Part shown: positions 12,649 to 26,599 of the stretch, piece after piece
Layout: the number at the start of each line of letters is the position of its first letter
Numbering within the stretch: the stretch's first letter is position 1
Assembly: GCA_036004585.1 (NCBI GenBank)
Contig: DASYRH010000030.1
Span: 2,982 to 66,981, forward strand
Source: Nitrososphaera sp.
GTDB lineage: Archaea > Thermoproteota > Nitrososphaeria > Nitrososphaerales > Nitrososphaeraceae
Reading direction: 5' to 3'
Length of the DNA: 64,000 nucleotides
Notes under the pieces: generated by a model
What the model was told of the DNA's origin: nothing
Database searches by the model: none
The model's input: only the letters and a program-made list of their open reading frames with translations
Made by a program: the position numbers and the translations under genes

Positions 12649-12761
12649 GCCTTGACAGATCACTATCAGGTGACTATTTCTGCTTTAAGGTAAGCACAAC
12701 AAGTGGAGGCAGCCTGCCACTGCGGTTAATAACAAGCGCAGCCATATTAGATGTGGGAACT

Positions 12762-12944
12762 ATGGCTAGCAAGAATCAAGAAGAGGGGAAAGTGCTGCTG
12801 ACGCTTCCAAACATCAAGTACTTGGCGGAGGGTCTTGATGCTTTGTTAATGACTGACCTTGACGGCGAAAAGAGAGCAAAGGTGATCCAATTGCGAAATG
12901 ACCTGTTGTCACATATCAACAGCATCTTTACTGACTATTCGTAA
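12762..12944 (+). CDS. small hypothetical protein
   Basis: 60-aa helical ORF with protein-like composition filling the gap between two minus-strand genes. Confidence 0.45.
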   Translation: MASKNQEEGKVLLTLPNIKYLAEGLDALLMTDLDGEKRAKVIQLRNDLLSHINSIFTDYS

Positions 12945-13308
12945 TCGCCGCACGTACTTTTGTGATAACTTCGTTTATCGAGAGTGGCTCTTTCTTTATC
13001 ACGTCTTTTCTGTCAAGCGATCCCATCAGTCGCAGTTCTTGGGTTGATGGCCGAAGTAAGAACATGAAGGTGATCTGTCTATCGCATGTGTATCTGATCT
13101 CACGGTAAAGGTCGATGCCTGTCATGCCCCTCATCACAAGGTCAGTGATTACCAAGGAATAATCTGTATGTGTAGCGTAGACCAAGGCTTCCTTAGGGTC
13201 CGTAGTATGGTCCACCGTATAGCCGTCTGCTCGTAGGTACGTCTTCATCAGGCTGGCCGTGCTATACTTCTGGTCAACAAGAAGGATCGAGTCGCTCAAC
13301 TCTCTCAT
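12928..13308 (-). CDS. single-domain response regulator receiver (atypical)
   Basis: ILLVD, ITDLVMRGMTG and IKKEP; the usual conserved Thr/Ser position is replaced. Confidence 0.85.
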   Translation of the reverse strand: MRELSDSILLVDQKYSTASLMKTYLRADGYTVDHTTDPKEALVYATHTDYSLVITDLVMRGMTGIDLYREIRYTCDRQITFMFLLRPSTQELRLMGSLDRKDVIKKEPLSINEVITKVRAAITNSQ

Positions 13309-13766: not shown

Positions 13767-15293
13767 ATGATGTCCGGATCAAAACCGGCTCTGTCAGCGT
13801 TGGCTCTACAGAATGAACTCTTTAATGCACTGTCCTATGCGACTAGCAACAGGTTTCAGATTCATCCCGACGCATTCGCAATGCTCAGAGGCCTCGACGA
13901 TGACATTCTGAGGATTGTGCAGGAAATAGTCAAGCTGAAAAAAACAGGCAAAAATTCGGTAATCATGATCGAAGATATCAAGAGCTTTCTCAATCCAGGG
14001 AGGGCCCATGAGCAAGAAGCATCTACTGAGCAAAGCTGCAATGTCATCATGGATCCAACCCCAAATGTCGCGACAGGTGAGGGTGTGGAGGGCTATGCTG
14101 CGCTATTTCACAGCAGATTTGAAAAGACAATGAAAATACTCTCCCAGCGGCCCGATAGCAAGCGAATCTCCAAGGTTGCATCAGTCAAGCAAAACTCTAG
14201 GAACGGCTCAAGGACACAATCGGAAAGAGGTGAGCGCAGCCAAAACGGTGGTTCTACTACGATCGTTGCCGGGCTATTGATGTCAAAGCGATCAAAGAAG
14301 AATGGTGTAGAACTTGCAGTCGATGACTACACCGGCACGCTGTCGGTGATGGCAACTACGGAAGATGCGAAAAAACAAGCCGCGTCTCTTGCGCTTGATC
14401 AGATGGTCATGCTAGAGCTTGAGAGTGGCAAGGGTGCTCCCGGCTTGACCGTCAAGAGCATAATAGCGCCAGACATTCCAGACCACTTACCAGGCAGGAG
14501 CAGGTCAGAATCCTACGCGGTACTGATCTCTGACTTGCACGTCGGAAGCAAATTTTTTATGCAGACCGAGTTTATGCGCTTTCTTGAATGGCTTTCTTCC
14601 ACTGAAGACGAAATTGTGTGCAAGATAAAGTTCCTTTGTTTTGGAGGCGACTTGATCGACGGGATCGGAATATTTCCAAACCAAGATAAGGAGTTGGTCG
14701 AGCTGAACGCTGTAAAGCAGATGAGCCGGGCTACAGATCTGCTTGCAATGGTCCCAAAACACATCAAGATGTTTGTGATACCGGGGAACCACGACCCTGG
14801 CAGGCGCGCCCTTCCACAACCGTCTATCCCGAGAAGAGATCTTGCGGACAAACTCTATTCGCTAGAGAACTGTGCCATGCTGGGAAATCCAGCTTTTGTA
14901 GAGCTAAACGGCGTCAAAGTTTTGATGTACCATGGGCAGAGCCTTGACGATGTCATTGCATCTACTCCAGGTTTGAGCTATTCCAAGCCGGCAGAGGCGA
15001 TGAAAGTGCTTCTAAAAGCGCGGCACTTGTCTCCAACCTATGGGGAGCGCACGCCCATCGCGCCAGAGCAGGAAGATATGATGGTGATTTCTGAGGTCCC
15101 TGACATTCTTCATTCTGGCCATGTTCATGTAGTCGACATCCAAAATTACCGGGGCACGCTTATTGTTAATTCAGGCGCTTGGCAGGCGCAAACGAAATTC
15201 CAGCAGACAATGGGTGTTACTCCGACGCCAGGCATCGCCGTCGTCGTTAACCTGGCGACTCTCCAGCCATTCCTTCAGGATTTCAATCAATGA
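13767..15293 (+). CDS. polB: DNA polymerase D small subunit DP1 (proofreading exonuclease)
   Basis: OB fold plus calcineurin-like phosphoesterase motifs ISDLHVGS, GGDLIDG, PGNHD, YHG and HSGHVH. Confidence 0.95.
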   Translation: MMSGSKPALSALALQNELFNALSYATSNRFQIHPDAFAMLRGLDDDILRIVQEIVKLKKTGKNSVIMIEDIKSFLNPGRAHEQEASTEQSCNVIMDPTPNVATGEGVEGYAALFHSRFEKTMKILSQRPDSKRISKVASVKQNSRNGSRTQSERGERSQNGGSTTIVAGLLMSKRSKKNGVELAVDDYTGTLSVMATTEDAKKQAASLALDQMVMLELESGKGAPGLTVKSIIAPDIPDHLPGRSRSESYAVLISDLHVGSKFFMQTEFMRFLEWLSSTEDEIVCKIKFLCFGGDLIDGIGIFPNQDKELVELNAVKQMSRATDLLAMVPKHIKMFVIPGNHDPGRRALPQPSIPRRDLADKLYSLENCAMLGNPAFVELNGVKVLMYHGQSLDDVIASTPGLSYSKPAEAMKVLLKARHLSPTYGERTPIAPEQEDMMVISEVPDILHSGHVHVVDIQNYRGTLIVNSGAWQAQTKFQQTMGVTPTPGIAVVVNLATLQPFLQDFNQ

Positions 15294-16500
15294 GTGTAGA
15301 GAATGTGGGATCTTCCTTGAGGGCCTCTCTCAAAGTTGTGAGTGGGATCTTTATTCTGATTTTCTGTGATCTTCCGTAGCGCCCTTGGTTCACCACGTCG
15401 GTTGTGACCAGGCCCAGCAGGTCTAGTTTGCTTATCATCTGGGTGACTCGGCGCTGTGTAAGCGGATCTTGTTCGGCCTGCTTGCAAAATGAAGAATATG
15501 CGTTGTAGACGTCTCCGGTAAAGCCGTCCTTTGATTTTGCAATCGCAATTATTACCAGCTTCATGTGCGCTGGTGCGTTTTTCAAAAGCACATAGGGCGC
15601 ATCTCGTTCTATTTTTTCCTGCGCTGCTCTTACATGTTTTTCATCAACTTTCGGCGCGCTTTCTCTTTCAGCAATCTCTGCTCCGACTCTCAGCAGGTCT
15701 ATTGCTTTTCTTGCGTCGCCATGTTCCCTTCCAGCCATCGCAGAACACAGATTGATAGCAGCCTCGGTGATGGCCCCGTCGGTGAAAGCGATTCTGGATC
15801 TTTCATGCAGTATCTGGCGCAGTTGCTCTATAGTATATGGGTTGAAAACCATTTCCTCCTCGCTAAGGCTGCTGCGAACCCGCGGGTCCAGCTTGTCTTT
15901 GAAGTCTAGGCTGTTTGATATTCCGATAAGTGAGATGAATCCTCCCTTGGCCATCTGCTGGTTTGCTCTTGTGAAACTATAGAGAACGTCGTCGCCGCTC
16001 TTGTCCACCAACGAATCTATTTCGTCGATGACGAGGATAAGGCCAAGTTTTTTCTTTTGAATATATTGTAGAATTCTGCTCATTGCTTCGCCGATTGAAA
16101 GACCGGTGAATGGCACTTGCTTTGTATTGTCTTGTTCTTGGTTTAGTCCAAGTTCCTCAGCGATCTCAAAAAGCACTTTGTACGCAGTGCTTGCACCCTT
16201 TGCATTGACATTAACTGCTTGAACTCCGGATTTCATTTCCTTGGCTTTCTTTGCAAGCCTTTCTACAACTTTCCTTACTACGGCAGTTTTGCCAGTCCCA
16301 GGTTCGCCAAATAGTAACAGGTTTGACGGCCTTGAACTCCTAAACACCGTCGACAGTACTTGGGCAACGGCGTTTTCTTCCTGCTCTCTGAAAGGCAATC
16401 TTTCTGGGACATAATCTATTGTTAAGGCCTGCCGGTTTCTGATGAGCGACTTCCCACTTGCGGCGTTGTTGAAAATGTTGTCGATATCAGAAGAGCTCAA
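15283..16500 (-). CDS. cdc6: Orc1/Cdc6 replication initiator
   Basis: Walker A GEPGTGKT, Walker B IDEID, GDARKAIDLLR and C-terminal wH (GRYGRS). Confidence 0.96.
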   Translation of the reverse strand: MSSSDIDNIFNNAASGKSLIRNRQALTIDYVPERLPFREQEENAVAQVLSTVFRSSRPSNLLLFGEPGTGKTAVVRKVVERLAKKAKEMKSGVQAVNVNAKGASTAYKVLFEIAEELGLNQEQDNTKQVPFTGLSIGEAMSRILQYIQKKKLGLILVIDEIDSLVDKSGDDVLYSFTRANQQMAKGGFISLIGISNSLDFKDKLDPRVRSSLSEEEMVFNPYTIEQLRQILHERSRIAFTDGAITEAAINLCSAMAGREHGDARKAIDLLRVGAEIAERESAPKVDEKHVRAAQEKIERDAPYVLLKNAPAHMKLVIIAIAKSKDGFTGDVYNAYSSFCKQAEQDPLTQRRVTQMISKLDLLGLVTTDVVNQGRYGRSQKIRIKIPLTTLREALKEDPTFSTLID

Positions 16501-16538
16501 GTGCCATATACACCACTAGTTGTAATTTTAACCCGCCG

Positions 16539-16710
16539 CCACCCCTACCTTTCTTATCCAAGAAACAAATTTCTTAACTTTACCTTAACAGGCATGTTAA
16601 CACGTCGCTTTTAACAAGCCAAATCAATTTGTACTCATTATCATATCAAGATAATGATCTTTTGATTTTCAAGCTTAGAGACAGGTCCTGCATAGGAAAG
16701 GTAGGGGTGG
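16539..16710. repeat. perfect 15-bp inverted repeat flanking the AT-rich region
   Basis: CCACCCCTACCTTTC (16539-16553) and GAAAGGTAGGGGTGG (16696-16710); resembles the GAAAC...GGGGT half of the ORB. Confidence 0.8.
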
Positions 16711-16788
16711 GCCCGGATCCAAATAATGCAAGTCGATTGTCTACTGTTAACTATCTAGATCAATTCAATGAAAAACGGCTCAAAAATG

Positions 16789-16809
16789 ACCCCTCTGTTT
16801 CCACTGGAG
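16789..16809 (-). promoter_or_regulatory. origin recognition box (ORB) 1
   Basis: Minus strand reads CTCCAGTGGAAACAGAGGGGT, matching the archaeal ORB consensus TCCAGTGGAAAC plus G-string. Confidence 0.9.
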
Positions 16810-16850
16810 CGTTAAGGTCGATCGTTAACAGTGTTAAGACCCCGATCTAC

Positions 16851-16871
16851 ACCCCTTCGTTTCCACTGGAG
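16851..16871 (-). promoter_or_regulatory. origin recognition box (ORB) 2
   Basis: Minus strand reads CTCCAGTGGAAACGAAGGGGT; direct repeat of ORB1, 62 bp away. Confidence 0.9.
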
Positions 16872-17040
16872 CACCAAAACGGGTGTTTTTTACTAGAAAT
16901 GTGGTTAACAGGAACGGCGAGTTAACGAAAAAAGCTATCGTCTCATGCAGTGTTAACATTAGCTAAGCTGGTTGTTATCACCCTTGACAGAGCTGTTGTT
17001 AAGTGTTAAGCAGTTAACAGGTCAAGCTACCTTTACTAAA

Positions 17041-17490
17041 ATGAGCTCGGGGAAGAAAAAGTTCAAGATAGAGTTAGAGGACGCCGAGGGGAGTAAGTAT
17101 AACATGTCCCTCGAAGGCAACATATCTAAAGACAAGATCCTGAGGATAGTCGAGTTCATGGATCTCCTCAACATAGAGTCCCCGAATGGCCATACAGAGG
17201 CCATCAGACCTGTCTCTGGTTCGGTCGGCGACAGGATATGGAGCCTTGTCGACTCGAAATTCCCTTACGGCAGCTTTACTTCAAGCGATATCCTGGAGCT
17301 ATATGAGGACCAGTATAATGAGCCCATAAAACTGAGCATTGTCTCGACCTATCTCTCCAGGTATTCCGAGCGGGGACGACTGGCAAGAGTCCGCCAAGGA
17401 AAGGAATGGGTATACCATGCCTCTAGAGATTCCGCAGCTCGGATGCCACCTCAGTCTTTTCCCTCAACCTCTCCCGACCAAGGTCAGTGA
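17041..17490 (+). CDS. uncharacterised protein with C-terminal winged-helix domain, divergent from cdc6
   Basis: ATG 17041 (MSSGKKKFKIEL); wHTH-like FTSSDILELYEDQY...LSIVSTYLSRYSERGRLARVRQGKEWVY. Confidence 0.75.
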   Translation: MSSGKKKFKIELEDAEGSKYNMSLEGNISKDKILRIVEFMDLLNIESPNGHTEAIRPVSGSVGDRIWSLVDSKFPYGSFTSSDILELYEDQYNEPIKLSIVSTYLSRYSERGRLARVRQGKEWVYHASRDSAARMPPQSFPSTSPDQGQ

Positions 17491-18052
17491 GGGTATAGTG
17501 AAATGGCTTTTTTGTGCTATCTCTGGCTACAAACTGGGACTCTGTCAGCCTTTTCATCAACCTGGCAGTGTGCTCCCTGGTCCTTCCGATTGCCTGCTGG
17601 ACCTCTCTTGAAGTCCTCGGCCTTTCTGCGAGCATCTTTAGGATATAATCGGTAGTCCCGTTCTGGCCATCCTGCTTCTCTGCATCGGTTGCTGATGTGA
17701 TACGCTCTGTGACAACGGGGGGTTCTGTGATTCGCGCTACGTGATGTTGCGGCGCATGTGATGTCACATCCTGTGATATCACATTGATTCTTGGCGTTTC
17801 TGCCCTCAATTCGATGATATCCAGCTTTGTGCGGAGCTCGGCAATTGCCTTATCGTAGTCATGAAGGCGGCGAGAGTATTCCATTACAACGGCCTCTGTG
17901 ATCGACTCATCAGAGTTGTGACGCTTTCGAGTCAAACCGGCAAACCTGTGATACAACATCACACCGGCCATGCCTGCAAAAAAGGCAAGGCCCGCATACA
18001 TCACATCCTGTGATGTGATAAATGTCACAGCGCCCGATAAATCGAAGGCCAT
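17423..18052 (-). CDS. membrane-anchored coiled-coil + winged-helix protein
   Basis: TM helix VMYAGLAFFAGMAGVMLY followed by RKRH, heptad region (YSRRLHDYDKAIAELRTKLDII), and C-terminal wHTH RTSREVQQAIGRTREHTARLMKRL...PFHYTLTDLG. ATG 18052. Confidence 0.8.
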   Translation of the reverse strand: MAFDLSGAVTFITSQDVMYAGLAFFAGMAGVMLYHRFAGLTRKRHNSDESITEAVVMEYSRRLHDYDKAIAELRTKLDIIELRAETPRINVISQDVTSHAPQHHVARITEPPVVTERITSATDAEKQDGQNGTTDYILKMLAERPRTSREVQQAIGRTREHTARLMKRLTESQFVARDSTKKPFHYTLTDLGRERLREKTEVASELRNL

Positions 18053-18207
18053 ATCACGCGAGTACGTGACATTGCTGTGATATATCACTATAGCATCACA
18101 TTATTTTACAATCTGGACACTCTTTTTATCACTTGTGACATCACAGACATCACGCTTTCTGTGATGTCCGGACGCAAAATATCACGCGTTTCAGGGGCAA
18201 ATATCAC
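17697..18207. repeat. dense array of GTGAY/RTCAC half-sites embedded in coding DNA
   Basis: 28 hand-counted copies of GTGAT/GTGAC/ATCAC/GTCAC in about 510 bp (about 2 expected at uniform base composition), including TGTGATATCACA and TGTGATGTCACA. Confidence 0.8.
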
Positions 18208-18477
18208 GCGCAACTGTTCTCCAAGTTGTCCCAATGCTGCCAGGCTTTGCGGTTCCAGGACGTCCGTTGATTGTAGAAGCACCACGCTGTAAAGGACAGC
18301 CTGAACCTTGTCCTGACACTGCTTCACCTGCCTGAAATACGCGCCCGAAGTCATGTTTGGCAGCCGGCTTGCACCTTGAAGCCTGTTATAGATTATTGAA
18401 ATCTGTTTTGCCGTAAATAAAGAATTTGCAACAAGTTGTGAAAATAGTTGACTAGAATTGAATTGCTTTCCGTCCAT
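18106..18477 (-). CDS. hypothetical protein, weak HTH-like signature
   Basis: ATG 18477 (MDGKQFNS); FTAKQISIIY...TSGAYFRQVKQ resembles a degenerate HTH. Co-oriented with the membrane wHTH gene. Confidence 0.65.
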   Translation of the reverse strand: MDGKQFNSSQLFSQLVANSLFTAKQISIIYNRLQGASRLPNMTSGAYFRQVKQCQDKVQAVLYSVVLLQSTDVLEPQSLAALGQLGEQLRVIFAPETRDILRPDITESVMSVMSQVIKRVSRL

Positions 18478-18567
18478 ACGACTATACAGATTTGTATAGC
18501 GCTTGCTTGCTATTAAGATTGGCGTATCATCAAACTTTAAAATGACACGCCATAATGAACAAAAGGC

Positions 18568-19317
18568 GTGCGGGATCTGGGAAAGGTCGAACAATACCTC
18601 AATAAAGAGATAAAGAAATGGGGCACGATCTGTCTTCCACTTATCGACTCGGAAAATTCGGCAAATGTAGCATTGGTGGCCAAGAAAGTGGAGGGGTTGG
18701 GTGCATCAGCGATTCTGGTAGGTGGGTCGTCTGCCATCGATCAGATAGAGCTCGCCAAGGTTGTGACGGAGATAAAATCACATGTCACAGTCCCTGTGAT
18801 ATTATTCCCAGGCAATGTCACAGGCGTATCACCAAAGGCAGACGCAATTCTTTTTAGCTCGCTTTTGAATTCCGAGAACCCATACTTTATCACCGAAGCG
18901 CAAGCGCTTGGCGCCGTGGCCGTCAAAAAGTATGGAATCGAACCGCTGCCGACGGCCTACATTATTGTGGGAGAAGGAACAGCTGCCTGGTTTGTAGGAA
19001 GAGCAAGGGGCATACCTTTTCACAAACCAAACATCGCTGTGATGTATTCCCTGGCTGCACAGTACATGGGGATGAGATTTGTGTACCTGGAAGCAGGGTC
19101 GGGCGCTACTCAAAATGTTCCCGCAGAGATGGTAGCGGCCGTGAGAAAGCACTACGAGGGCACGCTAATCGTCGGGGGCGGGATACGGACTGCAGAAACT
19201 GCCGGCAACATAGCAACCGCAGGGGCCGACATCATAGTCATCGGAACAATGATCGAGAAGGACGGCAACTGGCAGGAAAACTTTTCTTCAGTAGTCAAAG
19301 CTATTCGGTCGCGATGA
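18568..19317 (+). CDS. geranylgeranylglyceryl phosphate synthase
   Basis: LIDSE, ILVGGS, ILFPG, YLEAGSGA and IVGGGIR motifs. Confidence 0.93.
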   Translation: MRDLGKVEQYLNKEIKKWGTICLPLIDSENSANVALVAKKVEGLGASAILVGGSSAIDQIELAKVVTEIKSHVTVPVILFPGNVTGVSPKADAILFSSLLNSENPYFITEAQALGAVAVKKYGIEPLPTAYIIVGEGTAAWFVGRARGIPFHKPNIAVMYSLAAQYMGMRFVYLEAGSGATQNVPAEMVAAVRKHYEGTLIVGGGIRTAETAGNIATAGADIIVIGTMIEKDGNWQENFSSVVKAIRSR

Positions 19318-19321
19318 ATCT

Positions 19322-22300
19322 ATGATGCTCGACGAAGCCGAGGTCCGACTCAAAGACATCCGGATGCCGGCTTATTACAAGAGTTATCATCATCAGATCC
19401 TAGCCAGCGTCTATCAATATTACCAGCACGCACTAAAAGCGCGCCGCCGCGGAATCGATGCAGCTGACATTGTCGAGCCAAAGATAGCGTATGACTTGGC
19501 AGACAGAGTTGCAAAGATGCACGAGATCGACATTGCTGAAAGATTGAGGGGATTGCTATCACAGACTACCAAGGAAAAGGCCGCCTTGAAAATAGCCGAA
19601 GAGATTGCCGCGGGCGATTACGGTTCGGGGGACCTCAGAACGCGCCTGGACAACGCTGTGAGAGTATCGCTTGCTGTTGTCACAGAGGGAGTGACTGTGG
19701 CTCCTCTACAGGGGATCTCTGACGTCACGATAAAAAACAACAGCGACGGGAGCCAGTACCTATCTGTTTCCTTTGCCGGCCCAATTCGGTCTGCAGGAGG
19801 AACAGAGGCGGCATTGACCATGTTGATAGCTGATCACGCGAGAAAAGTCGCCGGCCTTGCAAGCTACAAAGCAAATTCGTTTGACGACGAAACGGGAAGG
19901 TTTGTCGAAGAGTTGAGGATATACGAAAGAGAAGTGATGGGCTTTCAGTTCAAGGTACTTGACGAAGATGTTGTAAGGTGCATAGCCAGCCTCCCAGTCG
20001 AACTTGATGGCGTAGACACAGACCCGGTCGAAGTCGTTGGTCACAAGGGGATGAGAAGAATTGCGACTGACAGGGTCAGGGGAGGCGCTCTGAGAGTGAT
20101 GAATGACGGTTTGATCGGCCGCAGCCGCAAGTTGTTGAAACTGGTTGAGACGCTAAAGCTCGATGGGTGGGAGTGGCTCAAAGAACTCAAGGGCGCAATC
20201 CAAACAGGCGACGATGACGCCGCCCATCACAGGATGTCCGAAGTTATCACCGGGAGGCCAGTCCTTTCGATGGCCAAAAAGACAGGAGGTTTTAGGCTTC
20301 GATATGGACGGTGCTGCAATACCGGATTTGCAACAGTTGGAATTCATCCAGCAGTACCGGCTTTGCTCAACTACGCAATTGTCGCAGGCACACAAATCAA
20401 GATGGATATCCCCGGAAAGGCATCTACCATCGCACTAGTTGACACAATAGAGCCTCCTGTTGTCAGGTTAGACGACGGCAGGGTATTGTGCATCAAGACT
20501 GTGCAAGAGGCAGAAAAAATCCGGAAACACGTCAGCAAGATCCTGTACCTTGGCGACATGCTCATCAGCTATGGAGATTTCCTTGAGAATAATGCCCAGT
20601 TGCCTCCGGCAAGCTACGTCGAAGAGATATGGGCGCTCCAGCTGCGCTCGAAATTGGTTTTGGCCACTGACCTCACGAATAGAGACAGGCTGGCCGAGCT
20701 GACAGAAAATCCCATCACCGCTACTCCGACACTTGAAGAGGCATTTGAAATATCCAGAAACTTTGGTATTCCACTTCATCCCCGGTACTCGTTTTATTGG
20801 GATGCAATCACACTTTCTGATGCGTTTTATCTGAAGGAAAAATTTTCGACGGGACTTGCGTTGGACTCCCGACTCAAAGACATCCTAGAGAAACTTGGCG
20901 TAGAGCATTCCATTGCTGGATCAGAGATCAAAATTGAAGGCAGTGCTCACGCAATTTTGCATAGAATGCTGGTCGGGCCGGCTCCGTTGGAATGCAAGGA
21001 TCCTTTGGACCTAGTTGCAAAGATTTGCGGTGTTGCAATTGCGCCGAAATTCATGTCAACTATAGCCGTGCGGGTCGGCAGACCGGAAAAAGCAGCTGAG
21101 CGCAAGATGAAGCCGCCGGTGCACTCGCTCTTTCCCGTTGGGGCCAAAGGGGGCGCGACGCGCGACATTCTGAAGGCAAGCAAAGAGCCTTCATTTTATG
21201 CAGAAATCGCGAATAGGTATTGCGTCGCGTGCAAGATGCCATCTGTTGGAACACACTGTGGCATTTGCTCCTCTCCAACATTGCTGCGGAACCTGTGCGT
21301 CGTTTGCCGGGACGAGTTAGAGGAAGACCAGAAATGTCCGCGCTGCGGCAAGGACGGTCGGACGTGGTCTTCTGTCAACTATCCGCTCAAAATGGCCCTT
21401 GAAAGAGCAAAGAAAAAACTCGGCTACGGGCCTGTGGAGCCCTTCAAAGGCGTCAAATATCTCATGAGCAGGCATAGGTCAGCCGAACCACTTGAAAAAG
21501 GGATACTCAGGCAGAGGCATGGCCTGTACACTTTCAAGGATGGCACCATCAGGTTCGATGCCACAAATGAGCCGCTCACTCACTTCAAGCCATCATGGCT
21601 GGATATTTCAATAGCCAAGTTGAAGGAGCTGGGGTACGGCCGGGACTACCAGGGAAAAGAGCTCTTATCGTCGGATCAATTGGTCGAACTGATGATGCAG
21701 GACGTAATCATTCCAAGAGATTCTGCAAAACATCTTTTGAATGCAGCAAAATTTATCGACGAAGAACTCGAAAAGCTCTACGGGCTTGAGCCGTTCTATA
21801 ATGTAAATTCGATTGGCGACCTTGTCGGGCATCTGGTAGTCGGCCTTGCGCCCCACACATCAGTCGGCATCATGGGAAGGATAATCGGATTTACCGATTC
21901 ACAGGTGTGTCTTGCTTCGCCGGTTTGGCATTCGGCCAAGCGCAGGGACTGCGACGGCGACGCGGATTCCATAATGCTCCTGATGGACGCATTTCTCAAC
22001 TTTTCCTCCGATTTCCTCCCTGACAAAATTGGAGGGCTCATGGATGCGCCGCTGCTGATACAGCCAATCGTGCTTCCACACGAGGTCCAGCGGCAGGCTC
22101 ACAACGTAGACATTGCAAGCTCATACCCGCTTGAATTCTATGAAGCGACATGGAAGCAGGCAAAGGCCGGTGATGTAGCAGGATTGATAGAGACAATCAA
22201 GAATAGGATTGGCGAGCAGAACCAGTTCTTTGGCTACGGATTTACACACATGACCGACTCGCTTACTACGAAGGAGCAGCGGAGTGCCTATTCGACGCTC

Positions 22301-22708
22301 AATACAATGGAGGAGAAACTAAAGATGCAGTTCGACACTGCAAAATTGATAAACGCAGTAGACGCCGACGAGGTCGCTGCAATGGTACTCACTACCCACA
22401 TCCTTCCGGATATCATGGGGAACATGCGATCCTACTCGTCACAGACACTTCGCTGCACTTCATGCGGCGCCAAGTTCCGCAGGATGCCTCTCGTTGGCAA
22501 GTGTTCTGAATGCGGAAGCGAGTTGATACAAACCGTGACCCGAGGCGCAGTAGAAAAATATCTTGGAATCGCAACTGGAATGTGCGCAGAATACAGGATA
22601 AACGAATATCTCAAGAGCAGGGTGGACTCGCTATCGATGGAATTGAAGCTAATTTTCAAGGAAGAGAAAAAGACCCAGTCCAGCATGATGGAATTCATGG
22701 AAAAGTAA
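19322..22708 (+). CDS. polC: DNA polymerase D large subunit DP2
   Basis: FAGPIRSAGGT, GFRLRYGR, DGTIRFDATN, catalytic RRDCDGDADS and C-terminal Zn finger; no intein. Confidence 0.97.
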   Translation: MMLDEAEVRLKDIRMPAYYKSYHHQILASVYQYYQHALKARRRGIDAADIVEPKIAYDLADRVAKMHEIDIAERLRGLLSQTTKEKAALKIAEEIAAGDYGSGDLRTRLDNAVRVSLAVVTEGVTVAPLQGISDVTIKNNSDGSQYLSVSFAGPIRSAGGTEAALTMLIADHARKVAGLASYKANSFDDETGRFVEELRIYEREVMGFQFKVLDEDVVRCIASLPVELDGVDTDPVEVVGHKGMRRIATDRVRGGALRVMNDGLIGRSRKLLKLVETLKLDGWEWLKELKGAIQTGDDDAAHHRMSEVITGRPVLSMAKKTGGFRLRYGRCCNTGFATVGIHPAVPALLNYAIVAGTQIKMDIPGKASTIALVDTIEPPVVRLDDGRVLCIKTVQEAEKIRKHVSKILYLGDMLISYGDFLENNAQLPPASYVEEIWALQLRSKLVLATDLTNRDRLAELTENPITATPTLEEAFEISRNFGIPLHPRYSFYWDAITLSDAFYLKEKFSTGLALDSRLKDILEKLGVEHSIAGSEIKIEGSAHAILHRMLVGPAPLECKDPLDLVAKICGVAIAPKFMSTIAVRVGRPEKAAERKMKPPVHSLFPVGAKGGATRDILKASKEPSFYAEIANRYCVACKMPSVGTHCGICSSPTLLRNLCVVCRDELEEDQKCPRCGKDGRTWSSVNYPLKMALERAKKKLGYGPVEPFKGVKYLMSRHRSAEPLEKGILRQRHGLYTFKDGTIRFDATNEPLTHFKPSWLDISIAKLKELGYGRDYQGKELLSSDQLVELMMQDVIIPRDSAKHLLNAAKFIDEELEKLYGLEPFYNVNSIGDLVGHLVVGLAPHTSVGIMGRIIGFTDSQVCLASPVWHSAKRRDCDGDADSIMLLMDAFLNFSSDFLPDKIGGLMDAPLLIQPIVLPHEVQRQAHNVDIASSYPLEFYEATWKQAKAGDVAGLIETIKNRIGEQNQFFGYGFTHMTDSLTTKEQRSAYSTLNTMEEKLKMQFDTAKLINAVDADEVAAMVLTTHILPDIMGNMRSYSSQTLRCTSCGAKFRRMPLVGKCSECGSELIQTVTRGAVEKYLGIATGMCAEYRINEYLKSRVDSLSMELKLIFKEEKKTQSSMMEFMEK

Positions 22709-25866: not shown

Positions 25867-25981
25867 ATATTTGCAGCGAGGGCTGAAATAAATCTATAGA
25901 GTCAGTTCAAGTGTTTTAAACAGGATAAGCAAGAAAAAGCTACACACTAGCACTTTTCGGCATTTGCGGCAAGGTACCCAA

Positions 25982-26599
25982 ATGCGTACACCCAACAAGG
26001 TTCAACTAGCGTCAATCTCAGCGGCATTTATCCTTGCGGGCTATATCGCAGCTACGGCGGGAATGCAGTCCAGTTCTCCACAATCGCTGGACCTCCCTCC
26101 GGTATTGGTTGCAGATGCAGCGGCAGTGGACTATTTTCTAAAGATTGAAGGAATCGACGGAGAGTCAACGAGCGATACTCACAAAGACCAACTTGAAATA
26201 GATTCGTTCTCCTGGGGCATGTCAAATTCTGGTTCAATGGCTGCAGGAGGTGGTGGTGGAGCCGGAAAGGTGAGCTTTTCATCTTTAAAGTTGACGACCG
26301 CGATCAGCAAGGCATCGCCAAAGCTGTTTGAGGCGTGCGCCACAGGAAAGCACTTTCCAACAGCTACACTGACTCTTGTGAATTCAGAACAACGTGACCT
26401 AGAATTCATGAAGGTAACGCTGAGCGATGTGATCATCAGCTCGTACCAGACAACCGGCACGTCAGGAGAATCTCCCGCCGAGAGTTTCAGACTGAATTTC
26501 GCGAAAATTGAATACGAGTACACACCGCAAAAAGCTGACGGAAGCATGGACGCACCTGTCAAGGCAGGGTACGACCTGGCGTTAAACAAGAAGGTCTAA
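25982..26599 (+). CDS. hcp: Hcp1-family (T6SS tube-like) protein with N-terminal signal/anchor
   Basis: YFLKIEGIDGES, HKDQLEIDSFSWG, SKASPKLFEACATGKH, VTLSDVIISSY, ESFRLNFAKIEYEY and GYDLALNK, preceded by a hydrophobic helix and polar linker. Confidence 0.88.
   Translation: MRTPNKVQLASISAAFILAGYIAATAGMQSSSPQSLDLPPVLVADAAAVDYFLKIEGIDGESTSDTHKDQLEIDSFSWGMSNSGSMAAGGGGGAGKVSFSSLKLTTAISKASPKLFEACATGKHFPTATLTLVNSEQRDLEFMKVTLSDVIISSYQTTGTSGESPAESFRLNFAKIEYEYTPQKADGSMDAPVKAGYDLALNKKV

Follow-up and report, generated by a model that had tools for sequence, protein, structure and literature searches.

In the type Ib and type II partition systems of plasmids (parC-ParR of R1, or iterons upstream of a par operon), arrays of many short repeats flank and overlap the promoter of the gene encoding the protein that binds them, and the consensus of the parS site, whose reader is the HTH protein and CTPase ParB, is a 16-bp palindrome. 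In Bacillus subtilis, Noc with its NBS sites and RacA with its ram sites are envelope-tied DNA-binding proteins that have multiple sites, those of RacA being concentrated near the origin, and in Escherichia coli the half-site of CAP (CRP) is TGTGAT. Among archaea, the winged helix-turn-helix (wHTH) protein AspA of pNOB8 has its binding site upstream of the gene that encodes it and covers over 200 bp of DNA (PMC5120986), the SegB sites of Sulfolobales are sequence-specific, ~83% intragenic and clustered near the genes of their binder (PMC12284271), and Sulfolobus UBP is a non-initiator, sequence-specific protein with a site at the origin, ucm, and origin function requires it (PMC12141716). How archaea segregate their chromosomes and position their origins has been described as poorly understood (PMC5120986, PMC12284271), and our literature searches returned no description of a segregation mechanism in ammonia-oxidising Thaumarchaeota. 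Here, we analyzed a 64-kb stretch of DNA (hereafter, the window) from a soil Nitrososphaera, an ammonia-oxidising archaeon, which carries an array of 28 GTGAY/RTCAC half-sites at 17697–18207, and we computed the array itself, the constraint acting on its DNA, its conservation, its linkage to cdc6 and to a replication origin (oriC), and the predicted architecture of a 209-amino-acid (aa) protein encoded across it. By analogy, the logic of this array seems to most resemble that of the plasmid centromere/operator arrays.

A regular-expression count gave exactly 28 pentamers in 17697–18207, the number given in an initial annotation of this DNA, and the strings quoted there were all recovered: TGTGATGTCACATCCTGTGATATCACA at 17757–17783, three copies of ATATCACGCG (18051, 18179, and 18201), and two further strings at 18000–18029 and 18128–18153. 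Sliding windows over the 64 kb had a mean of 1.84 pentamers per 510 bp (standard deviation 2.3), which leads to a Poisson estimate of ~1e-23 for 28 sites, and the richest 510-bp window outside the array, at 12651, contained nine. The extended motif reads approximately YGTGATRT, and its flanking positions −1, +5, and +6 are also constrained, with G at position −1 in 4% of the array sites vs. 33% of the background copies and T at position +6 in 64% vs. 35%. Three 12-bp palindromes, TGTGAYRTCACA, were found in the window when up to one mismatch was allowed; all three are perfect and all lie within the array. The 7-mer GTGATRT was observed 35 times in the window when 12.75 copies were expected, and 15 of these fell inside the array. 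The 20 copies outside, for ~12.6 expected, are near chance frequency, and there is thus no sign of a large regulon of this motif within the window. No comparable cluster was detected in the window or in ~0.9 Mb of related loci, as the initial annotation had anticipated. An RNA element was rejected as the origin of the array, since Rfam gave no match at E ≤ 1 in 16000–19000 and the sites are found in both orientations, and a "terminator-like" match at 17756–17784 corresponds to just two neighbouring palindromic sites.

The array had been described as spanning two open reading frames (ORFs) and the gap between them. The span was found to be correct, but the starts of both ORFs were not. Homologs and a cross-species alignment showed that the ORFs 17423–18088 and 18106–18594 of the mechanical list are too long at their 5′ ends. 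The downstream gene starts at a conserved ATG (18052) and encodes 209 aa instead of 221 (17423–18052, minus strand), and the gene directly upstream on the same strand starts at ATG 18477 and encodes an all-helical protein of 123 aa instead of 162 (18106–18477, minus strand). The true gap is the 53-bp intergenic promoter of the 209-aa gene (18053–18105, minus strand), and this promoter is the centre of the array.

Conservation of the array was analyzed in two sets of loci. A Cdc6 scan yielded 51 species-representative Nitrososphaeraceae loci, and in most of those with enough upstream sequence, the densest GTGAY window was located 1.4–1.9 kb upstream of cdc6, with 9–21 sites vs. ~1.7 elsewhere. 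Among the 38 cdc6-found loci with at least 1.9 kb of upstream sequence, 34 showed the gene order GGGP synthase (GGGPS)/123-aa/209-aa/(172-aa)/oriC/cdc6, the 172-aa gene being variably present, and a site cluster was observed at the same place in 35 species-level Nitrososphaeraceae loci. Orthologs therefore keep the DNA motif, contrary to the loss of the motif under conserved amino acids that the initial annotation had named as the outcome speaking against its proposal. The second set, which is independent of the first, comprised 80 metagenome loci found through the 209-aa protein instead of cdc6. Nearly all of those covering the array region contained 10–29 sites, vs. 1–2.5 per 510 bp elsewhere, and cdc6 was found 1.3–1.95 kb from the start of the 209-aa gene in each of the 37 loci that could be assessed, namely those with at least 2 kb of downstream sequence. 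An unbiased k-mer scan, in which 640 bp of orthologous sequence were set against the remainder of the loci, returned top words that were all versions of YGTGATRT: GTGATAT was enriched 36-fold and present in 35/35 loci, and GTGATGT was enriched 30-fold and present in 33 of them. The genome of the window has about twice as many sites as most of its relatives, the extra sites including palindromes.

Several results indicate that the motif is maintained as DNA, and they are consistent with the earlier claim of a DNA-level signal that shapes the proteins. In the 209-aa gene of the 35 loci, the pentamer was found in all five combinations of frame and orientation that give no stop codon (99, 87, 57, 47, and 44 instances), and the sixth, which gives TGA, was never used. 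The residues vary around fixed DNA: xxR-TCA-Cxx encodes T/I/K/E/M/Q/A, then Ser, then Q/H/R/P/L, and xGT-GAT encodes Ser-Asp or Arg-Asp, so that an AGT-to-CGT change swaps Ser for Arg with GTGAT kept. When synonymous codons were shuffled, 170 sites were expected in the 209-aa gene vs. 334 observed, and 70 in the 123-aa gene vs. 144 observed, and this excess was present in nearly every genome. The codons that form the motif were also preferred when compared to the same codon contexts in long ORFs of the same loci: GTG for Val before AT or AC (61% in the array genes vs. 20% in the control ORFs), TCA for Ser (61% vs. 35%), CAC for His (65% vs. 29%), ATC for Ile before Thr (39% vs. 15%), and AGT for Ser before Asp (55% vs. 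21%). This preference went in the same direction in five independent contexts and in both deep clades. The search for synonymous-site constraint suggested in the initial annotation thus gave both a preference for motif-forming synonymous codons and a twofold excess over shuffles. In the alignment of the 35 loci, the intergenic sites were conserved as well. Finally, short contigs from soil metatranscriptomes cover the 209-aa gene, showing that it is expressed, and none of the ~36 variant positions in these contigs fell inside a pentamer. From these comparisons of sequences, the array is very probably a protein-binding cis element under purifying selection.

It could be argued that there is no cis element at all and that peptide repeats, codon bias, or local composition gave rise to the pentamers incidentally, given that synonymous shuffles still produce ~10 sites in the gene of the window from amino-acid content, and that the clade of the window combines a higher G+C content and more sites with a block in the GGGPS gene that is missing in AT-rich relatives. 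This explanation is hardly credible when set against the use of five frames, the varying amino acids, the twofold excess over synonymous shuffles in 35 genomes, the preference for motif-forming codons in every context, the conservation of the intergenic sites, and the enrichment of the same words in AT-rich relatives. Moreover, the GGGPS of AT-rich distant relatives keeps the peptides VILFPGNVTGVSP and YFITEAQ without pentamers, so that such peptides do not force the motif. A peptide-repeat or compositional origin was therefore rejected on the basis of the frames, the shuffles, the codon preference, the k-mers, and this GGGPS control. The block itself consists of seven more GTGAY/RTCAC sites within 130 bp (18763–18893) inside the GGGPS gene (18568–19317, plus strand), and it was found only in the clade of the window (the window and the loci L001–L006). 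The array may have been extended in this lineage specifically, or the block may result from the higher G+C content of this clade.

When distances were measured from the stop codon of the 123-aa gene in the 35 loci, the sites fell into two blocks. In the left block, from −125 to +150 (~−150 to +130 relative to the start codon of the 209-aa gene, mostly forward sites), GTGAY on the coding strand dominates, and two or three further sites lie in the part encoding the transmembrane segment. The interval from +175 to +300 is nearly free of sites. In the right block, from +300 to +450 (~+270 to +400 relative to the 209-aa start codon, mostly reverse sites), RTCAC dominates, and this block falls exactly in the DNA encoding the disordered stretch of the 209-aa protein. 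In the window, the upstream sub-block (18128–18207, minus strand) lies within the last 34 codons of the 123-aa gene and contains four family-conserved sites, all GTGAT on the coding strand with spacings of 22, 32, and 9 bp, which are read as GTG-ATx (V-I/M) or xGT-GAT (S/R-D), GTG being used at every Val that starts a site. The 5′ end of the 209-aa coding sequence (17948–18052, minus strand) encodes an N-terminal stub and the transmembrane helix, and its sites are mostly of the GTG-ATx type and occupy conserved codon positions. The downstream block (17697–17782, minus strand) contains eight sites and encodes residues ~91–119 in the disordered linker; in the family as a whole, most sites of this block read RTCAC on the coding strand, and the number and orientation of the sites are kept, their exact positions not. 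Same-orientation spacings peak at 9/12, 22, 32, 41–42, 54, and 63 bp, about one helical repeat apart, which is suggestive of sites lying on one face of the helix, and merely suggestive because shared ancestry and codon periodicity also contribute to this pattern.

Within the 53-bp promoter, a TATA-like element was recognized at ~18086–18093, ~35–40 bp before the ATG of the 209-aa gene. The alignment of the 35 loci showed a conserved reverse ATCAC directly downstream of this element (ctataaRattaaATCAC) and a conserved GTGAT abutting the ATG (cGTGATATG). Since the conserved sites and the TATA-like element are so near the ATG, the 209-aa transcript appears to have a short leader or none, with an inferred transcription start site. 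At least some of the array sites look like an ordinary operator, since they bracket the TATA-to-start region of the 209-aa gene, and sites that abut the interval from the TATA/B recognition element (BRE) to the start of their own gene are, judging from sequence, what an autoregulatory operator would present.

The array is located next to a likely origin, in agreement with the initial annotation. The Orc1/Cdc6 initiator gene, cdc6 (15283–16500, minus strand), borders an intergenic region (16501–16971) with four origin recognition box (ORB)-like repeats, CACCCCT..TTTCCACTGGAG, at 16540, 16686–16709 (inverted), 16789, and 16851, which together span 16540–16875. Two of these repeats are inverted around an AT-rich stretch (16564–16685), which is likely the unwinding element, and by its sequence features the region has the anatomy of an archaeal oriC. 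The array is found ~0.7–1.2 kb from the ORB elements, a position that recalls the clustering of parS sites near replication origins. The ORB-like repeats (TTTCCACTGGAG) differ in sequence from the array motif, and none was found in the array. In the same region, seven of the 12 GTTAAC palindromes of the window are clustered at 16596–17013, a stretch that runs from the oriC intergenic region into the opening codons of the 172-aa gene, and their distances from the cdc6 start are similar in most of the 35 loci (~−75 to −110, −230 to −260, −300 to −350, and −410 to −500). This cluster may be bound by another origin factor, for which the 172-aa wHTH protein could be considered, or it may belong to an extended ORB.

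Short motifs clustered beside an origin raise the question of methylation, GTGAY being in that case the target of a methyltransferase whose hemimethylated state, left by the passing fork, would be sensed near the origin, as with GATC and SeqA at the E. coli oriC. The presence of a second short palindrome, GTTAAC, clustered in oriC itself would fit such a scheme, which is nonetheless very improbable, as no methyltransferase gene was found in the neighbourhood, the flanking positions −1, +5, and +6 of the motif are constrained too, and the orientation blocks around the promoter would be left unexplained.

The initial annotation had attributed the array to one of the flanking wHTH proteins, and the 209-aa protein fits this proposal. 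A model predicted by AlphaFold from 32 sequences (mean predicted local distance difference test (pLDDT) 73) shows a long single helix (residues 5–84), a disordered stretch (86–128, pLDDT < 50), and a wHTH domain (130–208), and the residues up to 84 are predicted to include a coiled coil. The N-terminal helix contains a 19-residue hydrophobic segment with a Kyte–Doolittle mean above 1.6 in 33 of 35 orthologs; the flank after this segment is net positive in 33 of 35, and the N-terminal stub is net negative in 31 of 35. From this segment and the charge pattern of its flanks, a membrane anchor of N-out, C-in orientation is predicted, which would place the wHTH on the cytoplasmic side. The wHTH gave sub-threshold matches to many wHTH families, with HTH_Crp_2 found in 27 of 32 members, and it also resembles PadR-like TA0346. 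With Foldseek, the most compact structural matches to its model were pNOB8 AspA chains (TM-score normalised to the target 0.70–0.79, root-mean-square deviation 1.5–1.9 Å), at E-values of only ~3e-3, and MarR, ArsR, and PadR proteins scored alike.

The recognition helix of this domain reads G156-R-T-R159-E160-H-T-A-R164-L-M-K167-R-L, and the residues R159, E160, and R164 (R-E-x-x-x-R) are invariant in the 209-aa family. BLASTP and a profile search aligned it in register with CAP G177-C-S-R180-E181-T-V-G-R185-I-L-K188-M-L, and the triad R180/E181/R185 of CAP makes base contacts and sets the TGTGA specificity (PMC2677863). The agreement of both motif and helix with the CAP recognition code appears to be a good lead, short of proof. 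The 209-aa protein is probably the reader of the array and the best candidate among its neighbours: it is the only one with a recognition helix matching the motif, neither this helix nor the motif varies, its promoter is at the centre of the array, and flexible linkers on a coiled-coil dimer would explain loosely spaced half-sites in either orientation. The proposal of a flanking wHTH binder is thereby supported by inference from the R-E-x-x-x-R helix in CAP register.

The reader could instead be the 123-aa protein, the 172-aa wHTH protein, or some nucleoid or replication protein that is not linked to the locus, and the 209-aa gene would then only host the sites. The 123-aa protein is present wherever the array is, and no function could be assigned to it; it is known only from Nitrososphaeraceae and matched nothing in Pfam, NCBIfam, PDB sequences, or Foldseek, the fold search being uninformative with a model of mean pLDDT 65. 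The 172-aa protein (16972–17490, plus strand) also has a wHTH, weakly BlaI/CopY-like, and the identification of the 209-aa reader rests on a weak alignment. We nevertheless regard a different binder as decidedly unlikely, given that the 172-aa gene, present in many loci, is missing from many that keep the array, that the 123-aa protein has no recognisable DNA-binding fold in its low-confidence model, and that a helix matching a known TGTGA reader is found in the 209-aa protein alone, where it is as invariant as the motif.

Comparison with the described systems placed the locus close to several of them and clearly inside none. As in the plasmid centromere/operator arrays, two repeat blocks are arranged around the promoter of the putative binder, and the operator would serve as the assembly platform. 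Unlike in these plasmids, no ParM- or ParA-type motor gene was found at the array locus, the half-sites are 7–8 bp long, irregularly spaced, and mostly coding, instead of regular iterons, the proposed binder is a membrane-anchored wHTH protein and not a ribbon-helix-helix protein, and the replicon is a chromosome. AspA, a PadR-like dimer, is likewise an archaeal wHTH protein and gave the tightest compact structural match to the wHTH model; however, AspA nucleates on a single 23-bp palindrome and spreads, whereas many discrete sites are present here, and it acts with ParB and ParA partners, which are absent at the array locus, and has no membrane anchor. The SegAB system shares with this locus an archaeal chromosome and mostly intragenic sites near the genes of the binding protein, but it has a 13-bp palindromic motif (TCTAGA-S-TCTAGA), a ribbon-helix-helix binder, the ParA-like SegA, and genome-wide sites; here, the motif is different and no SegA-like ATPase was found nearby. 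No ParA or ParB was detected in the 17 scanned ORFs, and the array motif, YGTGATRT with its three 12-bp palindromes TGTGAYRTCACA, is not the 16-bp parS palindrome.

The half-site TGTGAT is the same as that of CAP, and the helix G-x-x-R-E-x-x-x-R-[IL]-[LM]-K-x-L is in register with CAP residues 177–190; yet the 209-aa protein is archaeal and membrane-anchored and has no cyclic-nucleotide-binding domain, the half-sites are not arranged as TGTGA-N6-TCACA, and the similarity is below significance. The effector beta-barrel combined with HTH_Crp that characterizes the CRP/FNR family was not found, no cNMP-binding domain being detected, and the presence of a triad that could read TGTGA points to a mechanistic resemblance and not to membership. 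Like Noc and RacA, the 209-aa protein would be a DNA-binding protein with membrane or pole attachment that reads multiple specific sites, but the proteins and motifs are unrelated and the Noc and RacA sites are spread over tens to hundreds of kilobases, not over 0.5 kb in the gene of the binder. With UBP/ucm, the common feature is the site of a non-initiator, sequence-specific protein at an archaeal origin; in contrast, the origin contains one ucm of 11 bp, and UBP is abundant in the nucleoid and has over 300 sites, whereas the array is dense, lies outside the ORB region, and shows no sign of genome-wide sites. Since motor and partner genes, family motifs, and the cNMP domain are absent, the locus is not a member of the ParABS, SegAB, CRP/FNR, or ORB systems, and probably not of the AspA-ParBA system. 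The common ground is limited to the recognition-helix code with CAP and to a generic fold with AspA, and what is new here is the protein family and the unusual embedding of a clustered binding-site platform in coding sequence beside an origin. No description of the motif, the array, or the 209-aa protein was found in literature searches.

The reading we favour, which has about an even chance of being right, is a self-encoded, autoregulatory, membrane-attached, multi-copy nucleoprotein platform beside oriC that is read by the 209-aa protein. This protein would form a coiled-coil dimer with its N-terminal helix in the membrane and two wHTH domains on flexible linkers of ~45 residues, and each wHTH would read one half-site through its CAP-like R-E-x-x-x-R helix, so that loose spacing and either orientation would suffice. 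Occupation of the two sites bracketing the TATA-to-start interval would repress the 209-aa gene, and occupation of the other 10–25 sites would build a multi-dimer, membrane-attached nucleoprotein complex 0.7–1.2 kb from oriC. This complex could keep the origin region at the membrane or mark it there, functioning as a centromere-like tether or as an organiser close to the origin, and the right block would sit where the disordered linker tolerates almost any sequence. Several features suggest that the array is more than a simple operator and that the complex itself is the product: the sites are numerous and come at a cost for two coding sequences, the motif is close to chance frequency in the rest of the window, the membrane anchor is conserved, and the linkage to cdc6 and oriC does not vary.

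Alternatively, the locus could be a case of ordinary autoregulation and nothing else. The 209-aa protein, or the 123-aa/209-aa pair, would then be a local transcription factor, the extra sites would serve cooperative or looping repression, and the adjacency to oriC would reflect a conserved gene order with no role at the origin. Conserved sites do bracket the TATA-to-start interval, the opposite orientations of the upstream and downstream blocks suit a repression loop, no partition ATPase was found nearby, and four cdc6 loci have no such module. However, 12–29 sites over ~550 bp, with a family-wide codon cost in two genes, far exceed the requirements of known archaeal autoregulators; no other targets are apparent in the 64 kb, which would leave a factor regulating itself alone without evident purpose; and neither the linkage to cdc6 in 37/37 assessable loci nor the conserved membrane anchor is expected. 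Autoregulation alone is thus possible, on the doubtful side.

What the favoured platform would do is less constrained, as tethering, a centromere function, and control of initiation could each be proposed from the sequence. The initial annotation had called the array a parS/centromere-like or nucleoprotein-spreading site. The parS part of this claim did not hold, as Pfam scans of 17 ORFs (~5.9–28 kb of the window) detected no ParA, ParB, SegA, or SegB within ~10 kb and the motif is unlike parS or the SegB site; a "centromere-like" function is possible, and spreading is conjectural. A dedicated origin-to-membrane tether, in which one membrane-anchored wHTH protein and the half-site array in its own gene would constitute a motor-free, minimal centromere-like system, is a speculative and somewhat unlikely form of this idea.

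A number of observations weigh against a platform read by the 209-aa protein. The remaining four of the 38 loci (L028, L032, L037, and L046) have neither the 123-aa and 209-aa genes nor the array upstream of cdc6, so that origins of this family appear able to function without the module. The alignment to CAP is weak (E 0.069 pairwise, ~0.9 against the PDB), HTH_Crp_2 does not reach the Pfam threshold, and the wHTH is at least as near to the PadR, MarR, ArsR, and AspA folds; since the similarity to CAP is weak and other wHTH folds are at least as close, the match of the triad could be a coincidence. No partition NTPase or other motor was found nearby. Coding in itself favours spacings in multiples of 3, independence of related genomes is assumed in the codon and spacing statistics, so that nominal P values are too small, and the uniqueness of the array covers the 64 kb of the window and the ~0.9 Mb of related loci.

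In the four loci, the region upstream of cdc6 encodes FEN1, a 103-aa wHTH protein, a PNPOx-like protein, and, in some, a ThyX-like ORF; judged on these shared neighbouring genes alone, they look like one clade. A search for distant homologs with a divergent 209-aa ortholog returned only Nitrososphaeraceae, and a mobile-element or viral origin was rejected, as no relatives of the 209-aa protein were found in viral contigs.

The locus is a testable candidate, comprising a cis element that can be recoded silently and a small protein with a purifiable soluble domain, and Nitrososphaera viennensis is a cultivated relative suitable for chromatin immunoprecipitation (ChIP) and imaging. The locus also illustrates dual coding cleanly, with a DNA code laid over two protein genes and its densest block where the protein is disordered. 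If the dedicated tether exists, it would position or segregate the origin, or gate initiation, and would be a present-day example of the attachment to the membrane that Jacob's replicon model envisaged. For annotation, two start codons were corrected, and the array locus shows that origin-adjacent "hypothetical" genes can carry cis elements.

The surrounding region is completed by the genes of the two PolD subunits, the small subunit at 13767–15293 (plus strand) and the large subunit at 19322–22708 (plus strand). The convergent 172-aa and 209-aa genes share 68 bp at their 3′ ends (17423–17490). The second-densest GTGAY stretch of the window, with nine sites in ~490 bp (12659–13145), surrounds a response-regulator gene (12928–13308) and the end of an adenylate-cyclase-like gene; as its sites are scattered, unpaired, and without the extended RT flank, this stretch is probably due to chance. 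Finally, the ORF at 25964–26599 strongly matched the Hcp family of type VI secretion (PF05638, E 3e-40), which seems unexpected in a thaumarchaeon.

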